DNA of 64,000 nucleotides, from the UHGV virus genome UHGV-0149956; one strand, 5' to 3'. The stretch comes from a virus. Positions 37,139-39,574 of the stretch are shown here, piece after piece (the first letter of the stretch is position 1; the number at the start of each line of letters is the position of its first letter). The position numbers and the translations under genes are program-made. The notes under the pieces were generated by a model. The model made no database searches. It was given only the letters and a program-made list of their open reading frames with translations, and was not told the DNA's origin.

Positions 37139-37573
37139 ATGTTCGGTAAATTGTTCGGCAAGAAAGTCGCTTCTGCAAAAGTAGAGCTGAAAAAAGTTGA
37201 GAATCGCGATCTGATGGAGGCCATCATCGGTGGCTGTTTGTTGGTGTCTGCCGCTGATGGTGAAATCGAAAAAGAAGAAACAGCGAAACTTGATCAGCTT
37301 GTCCGCTCTAATCCGCGTCTTAGTCATTTTGGTAACGAAATTACTGCAACAATTACCCGCTTTACCGAGCAACTGGAAGCTGGCTTCCGTGTTGGTCGCA
37401 TGAATATCCTTCGCGAAATTGAAGATATCAAAAACGATCCAAAAGAAGCGGAAGAAGTATTCGTTAACATGCTGACAATTGCAGAAGCGGACGGTGAAAT
37501 CGAGCCAGCAGAACACAAAGTACTGGAAGAAGTAGGCCGTCGTTTGGGTCTTCGTGTGGAAGATTATCTGTAA
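37139..37573 (+). CDS. TerB-like (tellurite-resistance family) protein
   Basis: 144 aa with duplicated ADGEIE-x-EE motif characteristic of TerB. Confidence 0.6.
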   Translation: MFGKLFGKKVASAKVELKKVENRDLMEAIIGGCLLVSAADGEIEKEETAKLDQLVRSNPRLSHFGNEITATITRFTEQLEAGFRVGRMNILREIEDIKNDPKEAEEVFVNMLTIAEADGEIEPAEHKVLEEVGRRLGLRVEDYL

Positions 37574-37737
37574 TGGCAAGCAAGGCACGTATCGCAATCG
37601 CCATTGGTTTTCTCTTGCTGTCCGTGCTGGTGGATTTCACCAGCACAATCCTGTCAGTTTTATCGGACGGGGCGTTGGTGGCAGTAGCTGTAACATTGGT
37701 ATGGCCGATATTAAAAACAGCTTCTAAGGATCAGTGA
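37573..37737 (+). CDS. Small hydrophobic membrane peptide (54 aa)
   Basis: MASKARIAIAIGFLLLSVLVDF...; start overlaps TerB stop (TAATG); not in ORF track because shorter than 60 aa. Confidence 0.45.
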   Translation: MASKARIAIAIGFLLLSVLVDFTSTILSVLSDGALVAVAVTLVWPILKTASKDQ

Positions 37738-37844
37738 TGGGCTTCTGGGATTTTGCTGACAAGCATCCAATTGTTCTCGTTGTCATTGCTGGCATAGTTG
37801 TAGGCGGTATTGCTGGCGTCATAGAAGCACTCAGGAAACAGTAA
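37737..37844 (+). CDS. Small hydrophobic membrane peptide (35 aa)
   Basis: MGFWDFADKHPIVLVVIAGIVVGGIAGVIEALRKQ; TGATG overlap with preceding ORF. Confidence 0.4.
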   Translation: MGFWDFADKHPIVLVVIAGIVVGGIAGVIEALRKQ

Positions 37845-37847
37845 TCC

Positions 37848-37923
37848 GGCCCTTTAGCTCAGTGGTTAGAGCTGGCGACTCATAATCGCACGGTCACCGG
37901 TTCAAGTCCGGTAGGGGCCACCA
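37848..37923 (+). tRNA. tRNA-Ile2-like (anticodon CAT; could be read as Met)
   Basis: Close to E. coli ileX as recalled: GGCCCTT acceptor, anticodon loop CTCATAA, T-arm ACCGG-TTCAAGT-CCGGT, 3' ACCA. Confidence 0.8.
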
Positions 37924-38209
37924 TATTTGGTTGTAACACGGCGTCTGGCACATGCGTCGTTAGCGGTCTGGTGACGTTAAAAGGGGGGAACCTTGCCCCT
38001 AGCTCAGGCAACGAACCAGGTAGCCGGAATGTGCAAGCCACCGTTTGTTGTTTCTCGGGTAAAGGGATTCACCATCCTGGCGATTCGGTGTGACAGCCGG
38101 GAAGAGTCCGGCGCATTAATCCTGATTTTCTGGTGATGACTCATATCGTTAGGAGTGATTTGAGTATGCCGATTATATCTGACATTCAGCACGCCTGGGT
38201 GGAGTGCTA

Positions 38210-39574
38210 ATGTCTGCATCCCCTCTTGAATCCATGCCAAATTCCCTTAGTGCAGAACAAGCTGTACTTGGTGGCTTAATGCTTGATAACTGCCGCTGGG
38301 ATGAAGTTGCAGATCGTATAGTTGCTGATGATTTTTATACCAGTGCTCATCGTGAAATTTTCAGTGAGATGGAGAGGTTATTAAGTCATGGCAAACCGAT
38401 TGATTTGATAACACTTGCTGAAGCACTTGAACAGAACGGTAAATTAGAACGCGCCGGTGGTTTTGCGTACCTTGCGGAGATGTCAAAGAACACGCCCAGC
38501 GCGGCAAATATTTGTGCTTATGCGGATATCGTTCGTGAACGCGCGGTTGTTCGTGAAATGATTTCCGTCGCAAATGAAATAGCCGAAGCTGGATATGCGC
38601 AGGATGGCAGGGGCAGCAATGAATTGCTGGATATGGCCGAGCGCCGCGTTTTTGAAATAGCTGAAAAACGACAAAAGAGCGGTAGTGGTCCAAAAGATAT
38701 CGCCAGCATTCTCGATGCAACGGTATCTCGCATAGAAGAGTTGTTTCAGCGACCGCATGATGGTGTAACGGGGCTTGATACCGGATTTACCGATCTCAAT
38801 AAGAAGACGGCAGGACTTCAGGCGTCCGATCTCATTATTGTCGCCGCCCGCCCATCGATGGGGAAGACTACGTTTGCGATGAATCTCGTCGAAAATGCCG
38901 CAGTCCGTAACGATAAGCCCGTATTGGTTTTTAGCCTTGAGATGCCGAGCCACCAGCTGATGATGCGCTCACTGGCTTCTCTTGCACGCGTTGATCAGAC
39001 TCGTATTCGAACAGGGCAACTTAACGACGAGGATTGGGCGCGGGTTTCTGGCGCAATGGGGATTCTGTTGGACAAGCAGAATATTTTTATTGATGACTCA
39101 AGCGCCCTGACACCTACAGAGCTTCGTTCCCGCGCTCGTCGTGTTTATAAAGAAAATGGTGGTTTGAGCATGATTATGATCGACTACCTGCAACTTATGC
39201 GCGTCCCCGAGCTGCAAGATAACCGAACGCTGGAAATTGCCGAGATTTCTCGCTCACTGAAGGCTTTGGCGAAGGAATTACAAGTACCGGTGGTGGCATT
39301 GTCACAACTTAATCGATCGCTTGAACAGCGTGCGGACAAACGACCGGTAAATTCAGATTTACGTGAATCAGGAGCAATTGAGCAGGACGCAGACCTGATC
39401 ATGTTTCTGTATCGCGACGAAGTTTATCACCCGGATAGCGAAATGAAGGGCATTGCCGAGGTAATTATCGGTAAGCAACGAAATGGCCCAATTGGCACGG
39501 TGAGATTGGCTTTTAACGGCCAATACTCACGGTTTGATAACTATGCCGGTGCTGACTGGCAAGAGGATTATTAA
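38210..39574 (+). CDS. ban: Replicative DNA helicase, DnaB family (Ban-like)
   Basis: Walker A ARPSMGKTTFA, DnaB motifs LSQLNRSLEQR and SGAIEQDADLIMFLYRDEVY; GGAG 6 nt before ATG. Confidence 0.9.
   Translation: MSASPLESMPNSLSAEQAVLGGLMLDNCRWDEVADRIVADDFYTSAHREIFSEMERLLSHGKPIDLITLAEALEQNGKLERAGGFAYLAEMSKNTPSAANICAYADIVRERAVVREMISVANEIAEAGYAQDGRGSNELLDMAERRVFEIAEKRQKSGSGPKDIASILDATVSRIEELFQRPHDGVTGLDTGFTDLNKKTAGLQASDLIIVAARPSMGKTTFAMNLVENAAVRNDKPVLVFSLEMPSHQLMMRSLASLARVDQTRIRTGQLNDEDWARVSGAMGILLDKQNIFIDDSSALTPTELRSRARRVYKENGGLSMIMIDYLQLMRVPELQDNRTLEIAEISRSLKALAKELQVPVVALSQLNRSLEQRADKRPVNSDLRESGAIEQDADLIMFLYRDEVYHPDSEMKGIAEVIIGKQRNGPIGTVRLAFNGQYSRFDNYAGADWQEDY

Follow-up and report, generated by a model that had tools for sequence, protein, structure and literature searches.

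The isoleucine tRNA gene and the DnaB-family helicase gene described here very probably belong to the early 'ban' operon of a P1-type plasmid prophage, which is repressed by C1, and lie in its distal half; the best reading of the locus is that the tRNA is transcribed together with its protein-coding neighbours and then excised. Judged by sequence identity, the window (the whole 64,000 nt stretch, UHGV virus genome UHGV-0149956) is a phage P1-like plasmid prophage; it shares 97–99% identity with P1 and P7, and over this region 97.9–99.5% with these two phages and their relatives. The region is found at a coverage of at least 80% in 278 complete Escherichia coli genomes, nearly all on plasmids of ∼ 90–110 kb. 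An earlier note, made from the letters of the DNA, had described a TerB-like gene, a 54-aa and a 35-aa ORF, a tRNA(CAT) and a helicase gene, and this layout is present base for base (listed here together with element X, an addition to it):

37139..37573, plus strand: tciA, TerB family, 144 aa (Pfam TerB PF05099, 54.3 bits, E = 2e-14; PHROG 632; tciA/terB in P1 and P7)
37573..37737, plus strand: tciB, 54-aa hydrophobic DUF3927 protein (PF13064, 92.4 bits; PHROG 1470; annotated in P1, P7 and RefSeq)
37737..37844, plus strand: tciC, 35-aa single-helix micro-protein (PHROG 23152, 95 bits)
37848..37923, plus strand: trnI, tRNA-Ile2, anticodon CAT, CCA encoded (ARAGORN; Rfam tRNA 64.7 bits, E = 4.9e-13)
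37939..38112, plus strand: element X, a conserved structured RNA of ∼ 175 nt that fills most of the trnI–ban gap
38210..39574 (ATG to stop), plus strand: ban, DnaB-family replicative helicase, 454 aa (Pfam DnaB PF00772, 120.9 bits; DnaB_C PF03796, 359.7 bits)

The P1 order trnA-trnT ... tciA-tciB-tciC-trnI-ban is found in the window, at positions that match the P1 features and with 98–99.5% DNA identity in the alignable parts. The P1 reference NC_005856 labels tciA, tciB, tciC, trnI ('tRNA-ile2 (CAT), 89 pct identical to ileX') and ban one after the other. The layout exists as described but is not new: the annotated P1 reference has shown it ever since that genome appeared. The blind re-discovery is correct and adds nothing to the P1 literature, in which tciA/B/C, trnI, ban and the control from Op72 are textbook annotation. 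It also points to the little-examined non-coding content of the ban operon, ∼ 2 kb of which is structured RNA: tRNAs, long-stem modules, an STnc100-like leader and element X.

The tciB start overlaps the tciA stop (TAATG) and the tciC start overlaps the tciB stop (TGATG); both overlaps from which translational coupling had been proposed are thus present in the sequence. A TerB-domain protein followed by a DUF3927 micro-protein is the prophage cassette tciA-tciB. AAGGA stands 8 nt upstream of the tciC start, and the pattern FWxFxDKxP, a hydrophobic stretch and a basic tail are kept in four divergent tciC variants from related phages. Both micro-ORFs had been regarded as falling below annotation cut-offs. 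This is true of the 35-aa ORF in so far as the NCBI automatic annotation (PGAP) skipped it, but tciB is present in RefSeq, and the pair is named in P1 (tciB/tciC) and in P7 (upf69.4/upf69.6), with PHROG families for both.

Three bases (TCC) lie between the tciC TAA and base 1 of the tRNA, which agrees with a start 4 nt after the last stop, and 286 nt (given earlier as about 290) lie between the tRNA end and the ban ATG. The assignment to Ile(CAT) rather than Met also stands. ARAGORN and several phage records label the CAT tRNA as tRNA-Met from the anticodon alone, but it can hardly be an elongator tRNA-Met: it is identical to E. coli ileX (the copy beside mug) at 68/76 positions (89.5%), versus 55/77 for elongator tRNA-Met and 50/80 for the initiator. 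It retains the acceptor pairs C4-G69 and C5-G68, read from GGCCCUU...AGGGGCC, and the PGAP (RefSeq), P1 and P7 records all give tRNA-Ile. A tRNA-Ile of the ileX type is carried by 5426/5426 complete E. coli genomes. With the E. coli tRNA-Ile2 genes ileX/ileY trnI shares the CAU anticodon, the anticodon loop CUCAUAA, the D-arm and the two acceptor pairs, which are reportedly TilS determinants (Ikeuchi et al. 2005). It differs from ileX by a U6-G67 wobble, a G27-A43 mismatch where ileX has G-U, and a T-stem that is different but compensated. An intact tRNA with the Ile2 identity features kept and the T-stem changes compensated implies selection for function. The CAT anticodon is expected to receive lysidine from host TilS and to read AUA. 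Across 54 long ORFs of the window, ATA accounts for 11.1 per 1000 codons and for 19.6% of those that encode Ile; E. coli uses it at roughly 4–5 per 1000. This enrichment fits a codon-supply role for trnI.

The upstream part of the operon contains the following features:

35575..35604, plus strand: Pban promoter with the overlapping bivalent C1 operator Op72/Obanab (coordinates transferred from the P1 annotation)
35575–35591, plus strand: Obana, ATTGCTCTAATAAATTT (P1 annotation)
35586–35602, minus strand: Obanb, inverted partner of Obana
35576–35581 and 35599–35604, plus strand: −35 and −10 (TAATAT) of Pban
35699..35800, plus strand: 'dicF-like' region of the P1 annotation, ending in a terminator-like hairpin with a T-run (35761–35784 plus TTTTTT)
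36254–36329, plus strand: trnA, tRNA-Asn GTT (ARAGORN; Rfam 74.5 bits; P1 annotation)
36332–36407, plus strand: trnT, tRNA-Thr TGT (ARAGORN; Rfam 72.9 bits; P1 annotation)
36986..37101, plus strand: STnc100/PasD-like structured leader, directly 5′ of tciA

The operon starts directly after the dmt stop (35584), and trnA and trnT are its earlier members. Pban/Op72 is intact: all bases equal those of P1 NC_005856, and the 720 nt around it are 99% identical. Operator-constitutive bac mutations of P1 are said to turn ban on. In the GenBank records of P1 and P7, the sole promoter upstream on the plus strand is Pban with its C1 operator, ∼ 2.2 kb before the tRNA; Pban/Obanab 'controls expression of ban' according to the P1 record, and the operator note of P7 adds control of the tRNAs. 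The terminator-like hairpin at 35761–35784, ∼ 160 nt after Pban, may stop part of the transcription early. The Rfam DicF model gave no match at E ≤ 1 over the 'dicF-like' region. STnc100 is a known prophage sRNA family; the leader before tciA scores 43 bits with its model (RF02076; gathering threshold 47; E = 3e-7; model positions 31–147 of 206) and exists in P1-like phages in two allelic forms, both of which retain the closing stem and the CCGGG/CYCGG hairpin. A second 'operator-like' repeat (37103–37125) was dropped, since by eye 11/17 positions fit the C1 consensus.

Promoters and terminators isolating the tRNA from its neighbours had been named as the finding that would speak against a common transcript, and the scans find no such site on either side. 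A relaxed scan of the stretch that begins with tciA and ends at the start of ban (37139 to 38215) gave no promoter-like site of at least 8/12, and a standard scan was empty for the plus strand from tciB to ban; this was a simple sigma-70 scan, which weak or non-canonical promoters could escape. Between tciC and ban there is no terminator-like site, either after tciC or after the tRNA. These results bear on whether the tRNA and ban could be separate units, with a tRNA promoter inside tciC and a ban promoter in the 286-nt gap. Chromosomal ileX would be a precedent, being monocistronic with its own promoter (TGGATT-17-TATAAT directly upstream), and lambdoid and Uetakevirus phages frequently have a promoter ahead of element X; in Stx2c-type phages, for example, TTGACA-17-CATAAT with a 17-bp palindrome lies ∼ 50 nt upstream of X. 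However, unlike ileX, trnI is embedded in an mRNA operon and has no private promoter. Phage trnI copies begin 3, 9 or 27 nt past the preceding ORF, whichever this is, and the sequence before trnI is wholly different between cassette types except for a common leader of only 9 nt, CAGTAATCC; a conserved private promoter before these copies was not found. Nor did the P1 annotators find a promoter there. Together with the empty scans this makes separate units highly improbable.

In published RNA-seq of P1vir, tciB, tciC, trnI and ban rise together, with log2 inductions at 10/20 min of 5.6/7.6 (tciB), 5.9/7.6 (tciC), 5.7/8.1 (trnI) and 6.2/7.9 (ban). trnA and dbn are less induced than the middle genes, and in a Δhfq host the RNA levels of tciA, tciB/C, trnI and ban diverge. 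The uneven induction and this divergence show that segments of the operon differ in stability or carry extra signals. P1 tolerates the CRISPRi knock-down of every one of the genes, and none of these genes is therefore essential in the laboratory. As no promoter- or terminator-like site separates the genes, Pban is annotated as their promoter and their RNAs are co-induced, cotranscription of trnI with tciABC and ban followed by its excision from the polycistronic RNA is the best reading. Its basis is annotation, the P1 genetics of the bac mutations, and absent signals; C1 control of ban from Op72 and the RNA-seq co-induction are taken from annotation or literature.

The following sequence of events would result. 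In a lysogen, C1 on Op72 would keep the operon silent. Upon induction or infection, RNA polymerase would start at Pban (∼ 35610) and make one long RNA with the dicF-like segment, several long-stem RNA modules, tRNA-Asn, tRNA-Thr, the STnc100-like leader, tciA-tciB-tciC (translationally coupled within it), tRNA-Ile2, X, ban and two distal genes. We infer that host enzymes would release the tRNAs, RNase P at the 5′ end and an endonuclease plus exonucleases at the 3′ end, with CCA already encoded. After lysidine modification by TilS, tRNA-Ile2 would supply extra AUA decoding for an ATA-rich phage genome, and Ban would act as the phage DnaB analogue.

Given a continuous RNA, cutting out the tRNA would by geometry unavoidably part the tciABC message from the ban message. 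It had been proposed that helicase expression is thereby coupled to tRNA processing, and a functional coupling of this kind, like any regulatory consequence for ban, can only be inferred. The 3′ cut would make the 5′ end of the ban mRNA, whose amount or stability would then follow tRNA maturation. The processed message would start with compact X, which could serve as a protective 5′ structure. RNA levels differ within the operon in Δhfq cells, and trnI-X-ban is kept when the upstream cassette is swapped (tciABC versus a membrane protein and an SPFH-like protein). Yet D6-type phages keep trnI-X and carry other genes in place of ban, so that the trnI-X pair is not helicase-specific; moreover, ban carries a GGAG ribosome-binding site of its own and perhaps also a leader ORF, and the tufB and metY-nusA-infB cotranscripts show that processing need not regulate. 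We regard control of the helicase through tRNA processing as doubtful.

The same exchanges could mean that the tRNA serves chiefly as a mosaic boundary, a junction at which exchangeable cassettes recombine, its place beside ban carrying no functional meaning. The cassettes before trnI (tciABC types versus SPFH type) and after X (ban versus D6-type genes) vary independently while trnI-X stays constant, and the tRNA set of the operon leader differs among relatives (Asn, Thr, Tyr, Ser, Arg). Such a role is compatible with cotranscription and excision rather than exclusive of it, but the conserved identity and compensated T-stem of the tRNA, and the job that ATA enrichment gives it, make a junction as the main explanation unlikely.

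The ban gene itself is 99% identical to P1 at the DNA level and is annotated as ban in P1 and P7; both the N-terminal DnaB domain and the C-terminal RecA-like DnaB_C domain were found in Ban. The mechanical ORF list places the helicase start at GTG 38204. Three further ORFs adjoin ban:

38166..38210, plus strand: possible 14-codon leader ORF, MPIISDIQHAWVEC (AGGAG 10 nt upstream; its TAA overlaps the ban ATG as TAATG)
39574–39876, plus strand: 100-aa ORF, start overlapping the ban stop (TAATG); PHROG 12809
39873–40847, plus strand: 324-aa Dbn-like glycosyltransferase-family protein, ATGA overlap (PHROG 2518, 774 bits; weak match to Pfam Glycos_transf_1)

Both distal ORFs are annotated in a near-identical RefSeq plasmid. 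From its sequence, the ORF at 38166–38210 might conceivably be a leader ORF of ban: its frame and the TAATG are kept in all ban-carrying variants, while its residues vary (AWVEC, TRMEC, TRMEY). It runs through the 5′ arm of a predicted hairpin (38181–38214) that buries the ban GGAG and AUG; the stability of this hairpin is no better than that of shuffles (z = −1.0). The 14-codon ORF is not annotated in P1.

Element X is the only unexplained item of the locus, and is unannotated in ∼ 50,000 phage records and 5,426 RefSeq E. coli genomes. An nhmmer profile of 28 diverse X copies matches the window once, at 37925–38119 (E = 6.6e-45). The element has five helices backed by covariation counts, two possible H-type pseudoknots and a core of 19 invariant nt, GGUAGCCGGAAUGUGCAAG:

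37939–37944 with 37954–37959, plus strand: helix H1
37948–37953 with 38029–38034, plus strand: possible pseudoknot 1
37967–37971 with 38016–38020, plus strand: helix H3
38065–38068 with 38074–38077, plus strand: helix H4b
38070–38073 with 38087–38090, plus strand: H4a, possible pseudoknot 2
38096–38100 with 38108–38112, plus strand: helix H6

The fold of the whole 292-nt spacer is not more stable than that of shuffles (z = −0.95) and the helices covary; the signal of X thus sits in covariation, not in energy. X is present in 1832 of 5426 complete E. coli genomes, and its hosts include P1-like, lambdoid/Stx, epsilon15-like and Klebsiella/Stenotrophomonas phages. Its usual place in lambdoid prophages is directly 3′ of the CI repressor gene. 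The trnI-X-ban block is conserved. Among 142 contexts, trnI stands 19 nt upstream of X in 24 and a tRNA-Arg(TCT) 65 nt downstream in 27. A constant link of X to tRNAs was rejected, as 91/142 contexts have no tRNA within 400 nt. A strong promoter precedes X in 27/91 contexts versus 26% of shuffles, and 16 share one site at 52–53 nt.

The covariance models of Rfam 15, a library that includes AgvB, AsxR, Esr41, DicF, IsrK, C4 and STnc100, gave no match at E ≤ 1 over 37924–38209, nor over X in nine other distant phage or genome loci, and literal X sequence strings were not found in the literature. We rejected an Hfq sRNA of the AgvB/AsxR/Esr41/Pas type, since RNAs of this type either have an Rfam model or carry a poly-U terminator at their end, and X has no Rfam match and no terminator. 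A protein-coding function was also rejected: the variable hairpins contain indels with lengths not divisible by three, and different copies of X are overlain by different ORFs. Homology to HK022 put was dropped because nhmmer and blastn-short found nothing in HK022 24000–32000, and size and architecture differ.

We consider it possible, at somewhat less than even confidence, that the trnI–ban gap is not a spacer and that X represents an undescribed phage RNA class, always placed at the 5′ end of an early or moron transcript or close to it. This placement, after a promoter or after a tRNA 3′-processing site, suggests a cis-acting role; candidates would be a 5′-end stabilizer or a put-like processive antiterminator and, less likely, a self-processing element. 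If this is true, X in P1 would set ban expression after tRNA removal.

Compared with the ban operons of P1 and P7 (NC_005856/AF234172; NC_050152), the window has the same genes, order, overlaps, operator/promoter, tRNA and spacer. It differs from P1 in carrying the P7/D6-type allele of the STnc100-like leader and tciA 5′ end (tciA of 144 aa versus 141 aa in P1), and from both phages in the additional 100-aa ORF between ban and the dbn-like gene. tRNA genes inside mRNA operons are well known in both hosts and phages. The E. coli thrU-tyrU-glyT-thrT-tufB and metY-nusA-infB transcripts, ileZ-argN-argO upstream of stx in Stx phages and the T4 tRNA cluster are examples in which tRNAs are transcribed with protein genes and freed by RNase P/E-type processing, the phage cases supplying decoders of rare codons (Ile-AUA, Arg-AGA/AGG). 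Here, in contrast, trnI sits mid-operon, 3 nt after a coupled micro-ORF and before a replication gene. For X the closest parallels by position would be HK022 put and lambda nut, which act in cis in the leader RNAs of early operons: X of lambdoid prophages lies at the same place on the map, after the CI gene and a promoter, at the head of the early-left operon. The put RNAs of HK022 are ∼ 70 nt long with two stem-loops, and lie just after PL and ∼ 270 nt after PR. X, however, is ∼ 175 nt long with at least five helices and possible pseudoknots, has no similarity to the HK022 immunity region and in P1 lies 2.3 kb from the promoter. Were X to control how early phage transcripts are elongated or how stable they are, a classic problem of phage regulation would have, next to HK022 put, a second solution made of RNA alone.

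The layout of tciABC, trnI and ban, in the distal half of the operon, was obtained by reading the sequence 36400-40200 directly, together with an ORF listing and ARAGORN:

37139-37573, plus strand: tciA, 144-aa ORF, Pfam TerB (E=2e-14)
37573-37737, plus strand: tciB, 54-aa ORF, Pfam DUF3927 (92 bits), PHROG 1470
37737-37844, plus strand: tciC, 35-aa ORF, PHROG 23152 over its full length (95 bits)
37848-37923, plus strand: trnI, 76-nt tRNA, anticodon CAT, CCA encoded, Rfam tRNA (64.7 bits, E=4.9e-13)
38210 (ATG) to 39574, plus strand: ban, 454-aa ORF, Pfam DnaB (121 bits) and DnaB_C (360 bits)

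The tciB ATG overlaps the tciA TAA (TAATG), the tciC ATG overlaps the tciB TGA (TGATG), three bases separate tciC from trnI and a 286-nt gap follows before ban. The earlier note had described a TerB-like gene coupled to 54-aa and 35-aa ORFs through these overlaps, which the sequence and ORF list reproduce exactly. It had placed a tRNA 4 nt past the last stop and a DnaB-family helicase about 290 nt further on, in agreement with the spacing (sequence, ARAGORN) and with the two Pfam domains of the 454-aa ORF.

By megablast against phage records, the region is 98-99.5% identical to phage P1, P7 and P1-like phage-plasmids, and at least 80% of 36400-41000 is present in 278 complete E. coli genomes, typically on plasmids of 90-110 kb. 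The P1 record NC_005856 labels the same features tciA, tciB, tciC, trnI and ban. Upstream, the record has a single plus-strand promoter, Pban, and overlapping it a bivalent C1 operator, Obanab (former Op72), which 'controls expression of ban'; P7 is annotated likewise, its operator note adding tRNAs to what is controlled. Promoter and operator are intact base for base in the window (35575-35604, directly past the dmt stop), and the order is Pban/Op72, a 'dicF-like' segment, trnA(Asn), trnT(Thr), tciABC, trnI, ban, dbn. The arrangement is thus nothing other than the distal part of the P1 ban operon; reading it as an operon is essentially correct, but has long been known for P1.

Standard scans gave no plus-strand promoter-like site from tciB to ban and nothing terminator-like from tciC to ban; a relaxed promoter scan of 37139-38215 (at least 8/12, A2 and T6 of the -10 required) was likewise empty. 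The independent promoters and terminators that would, by the earlier note, have refuted its reading of the tRNA were therefore not found. The chromosomal tRNA gene ileX has TGGATT-17-TATAAT directly upstream. Phage trnI copies start 3, 9 or 27 nt after whichever ORF precedes, and the 14 distinct upstream contexts have only the 9-nt leader CAGTAATCC in common, which provides the last codon and stop of tciC. Published P1vir RNA-seq places tciB, tciC, trnI and ban in one induced set with nearly equal log2 changes (5.6-6.2 at 10 min, 7.6-8.1 at 20 min). The evidence best supports a tRNA that is cotranscribed with its neighbours and then excised. A terminator-like hairpin with T-run lies ~160 nt 3' of Pban (35761-35784), trnA and dbn were induced less in the same RNA-seq, and operon segments differ in behaviour in a delta-hfq host; taken together, these observations point to attenuation and segment-specific decay as likely.

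ARAGORN labels trnI as Met from the anticodon alone. The gene is identical at 68/76 positions to ileX, the E. coli tRNA adjoining mug, compared with 55/77 for elongator and 50/80 for initiator tRNA-Met. Anticodon loop and D-arm are the same as in ileX, and the acceptor pairs C4-G69 and C5-G68 are retained; five differences fall in the T-stem/variable region, where the T-stem is still paired, and a G27-A43 mismatch replaces the G-U of ileX. NC_005856 describes a 'tRNA-ile2 (CAT) gene; 89 pct identical to ileX', and RefSeq annotates tRNA-Ile. The assignment to Ile(CAT) was right on the evidence of ileX similarity, acceptor pairs and RefSeq label. Across 54 long ORFs of the window ATA stands at 11.1 per 1000 codons, roughly two- to threefold the level in E. 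coli, and makes up 19.6% of Ile codons. This enrichment fits the usual codon-supply rationale for trnI.

Four divergent TciC variants occur in related phages (MGFWDFADKHP..., MSFWDFADKYP..., MMDFWTYIDKNPGW..., MNFWAFADKNPGW...), all sharing FWxFxDKxP at the N terminus, a hydrophobic segment and a basic tail; such conservation is that expected of a genuine micro-protein. The earlier suggestion that both micro-ORFs fall below typical annotation cut-offs holds for tciC in the NCBI pipeline, which omitted it in a near-identical plasmid, but tciB and tciC are both annotated, known small genes in P1 and P7. The name tci ('tellurite/colicin resistance/inhibition of cell division') rests on homology only, and tciA through ban all scored non-essential by CRISPRi.

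In RCS47- and Ro157c2-type relatives a membrane protein and an SPFH-like protein stand in place of tciABC, with trnI, spacer and ban kept; in D6-type relatives tciA/B, a TciC variant, trnI and the initial part of the spacer are present, but genes other than ban come next. Across these relatives trnI and the adjoining ~190 nt thus behave as a unit, linked to the helicase often but not obligatorily. This weakens the earlier idea of a helicase-specific coupling to tRNA processing. In the remainder of the gap (38113-38209), AGGAG-N10-ATG (38166) starts a frame of 14 codons that ends in a TAA overlapping the ban ATG (TAATG). Frame and overlap are retained in all ban-carrying variants; four residues differ, and the peptide is not conserved. 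A predicted hairpin (38181-38214), read through by this ORF, buries the ban GGAG and AUG but does not outperform shuffles. Translation of ban may be coupled to the leader ORF, though support is weak.

A 100-aa ORF (39574-39876; PHROG 12809, no Pfam) lies between ban and a Dbn-like glycosyltransferase gene, joined on both sides by overlapping stop/start (TAATG, ATGA). In P1 dbn is directly 3' of ban, and the glt gene of P7 is a different one; the operon thus ends in a variable cassette. The leader tRNA set also differs among relatives (Asn, Thr, Tyr, Ser(TGA), Arg(TCT)); the extra tRNAs of P1 relatives are Ser(TGA), Tyr(GTA) and Arg(TCT) (comparison loci L129 2155-2241, L131 3674-3760, L132 1635-1721, L010, L037). 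Long-stem RNA modules occupy these positions in the window, which makes the leader an evolving array of tRNAs and ncRNAs. Its further features are:

35966-36062, 36405-36496, 36630-36733, 36908-36992: four long-stem RNA modules (also L004 2674-2741, L005 2922-3018)
36378-36755, minus strand: plp ('putative lipoprotein'), 125 aa, P1 gene
36756-36947, minus strand: upl, 63 aa, P1 gene
36986-37101: STnc100/PasD-like structured leader, directly upstream of tciA

Each module has a conserved stem base (CACAACAGG ... CCGUUGUGGUGAAUGC), a covarying ~20-bp stem and one or two small cap hairpins, some resembling tRNA T-arms (GGGUUCGAAUCCC, GGGUUCAUAUCCC), with folding much stronger than in shuffles (z -5.3 to -7.6). 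CACAACA in the 5' arm is the GcvB-target consensus noted for AgvB. Possible readings of the modules are RNase III-type processing sites or tRNA-like remnants. Genes plp and upl, antisense to trnT and the modules within the operon, were not called by PGAP in the near-identical plasmid and may be spurious. The STnc100-like leader (43 bits against a gathering score of 47) has two very different alleles in the P1-like group of phages (window/P7/D6 and P1/SJ46) between conserved closing-stem sequences; a similar leader also precedes the D6-type genes replacing ban. The 'dicF-like' segment of P1 (35699-35800), which had no Rfam DicF match at E<=1, ends in the 35761-35784 hairpin (T-run TTTTTT, GTTTTTT in P1) and may act as an early attenuator or give rise to a short sRNA from Pban.

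The one item deserving specialist attention is element X, a ~175-nt RNA element in the trnI-ban gap, alongside the generally RNA-rich leader. Copies of X lie at:

Window 37939-38112; L004 2495-2670; L005 2517-2690; also L126-L128 and L133-L156: element X copies

Window 37925-38119 is ~80% identical to unannotated intergenic DNA of Stx2c-converting and other lambdoid phages, phiV10/epsilon15-like phages and the cdtI phage, and matches to its 3' half extend to Enterobacter, Klebsiella and Stenotrophomonas phages. More than 120 IMG/VR contigs contain the exact 22-mer CCAGGTAGCCGGAATGTGCAAG, and a 19-mer from it is found in 22 representative-genome contigs, all of Enterobacterales genera; two further 19-mer matches are a contig assigned to a Bacillota bin and a chance match. 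Of 5426 complete E. coli genomes, 1832 carry element X, in one to four copies, none with an annotated feature. A 32-nt spacer in an annotated E. coli CRISPR array (L158 401-432, 2012C-4502 chromosome) matches window 37954-37985 at 31/32, so X has been sampled as a CRISPR target.

A structure was built by hand on alignment A4 (28 copies, at most 90% identical). In it 96.9% of cells are paired, against 25-45% with partners slid, and 54 double-sided changes are seen against 18 ± 4 in shuffles. The pairs whose covariation supports the helices are, in A4:

H1, 48/60: GC 18, AU 8
H3, 74/129: CG 15, UA 13
H4b, 177/189: CG 20, GC 6
H4a, 182/202: CG 24, AU 4
H6, 211/224: UA 16, CG 10; 212/223: CG 15, GC 10

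H4a pairs the H4b hairpin loop with a downstream GGUG. The invariant H1 loop (GCACAU) is able to pair with an invariant AUGUGC, for which covariation is uninformative as both sides are invariant. In this model the two pairings are possible H-type pseudoknots. No Rfam 15 family (the library includes DicF, AgvB, AsxR, Esr41, STnc100, IsrK and C4) matches X in the window or nine other loci, and a literature search by literal sequence found no paper. X was also considered as a Pas-type sRNA; those end in terminators, which X lacks.

In 6/6 diverse lambdoid-type contexts tested, the gene directly upstream of X on the same strand encodes a CI-type repressor (HTH and Peptidase_S24, or HTH/Phage_CI_repr alone), ending 100-300 nt before X. 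In the Stx2c type a terminator and a TTGACA-17-CATAAT promoter bearing a 17-bp palindrome lie past the repressor gene; 3' of X come long-stem RNA modules, a dicF-like sRNA with terminator, and then ORFs. The same kind of module lies 3' of X in lambdoid and Uetakevirus phages. In phiV10-type phages a tRNA-Arg(TCT) lies 65 nt 3' of X, and in P1-types X starts right after trnI. As one common denominator, X would be at or near a transcript 5' end, primary or made by tRNA 3' processing. From such a position we infer, in descending order, a 5'-terminal stabilizing structure, a cis-acting elongation or antitermination element and, less likely, a self-processing or trans-acting RNA. The map position of X in Stx2c-type/lambdoid contexts is that of lambda nutL and HK022 putL; however, X has no sequence in common with the HK022 immunity region and is over twice as long as put.
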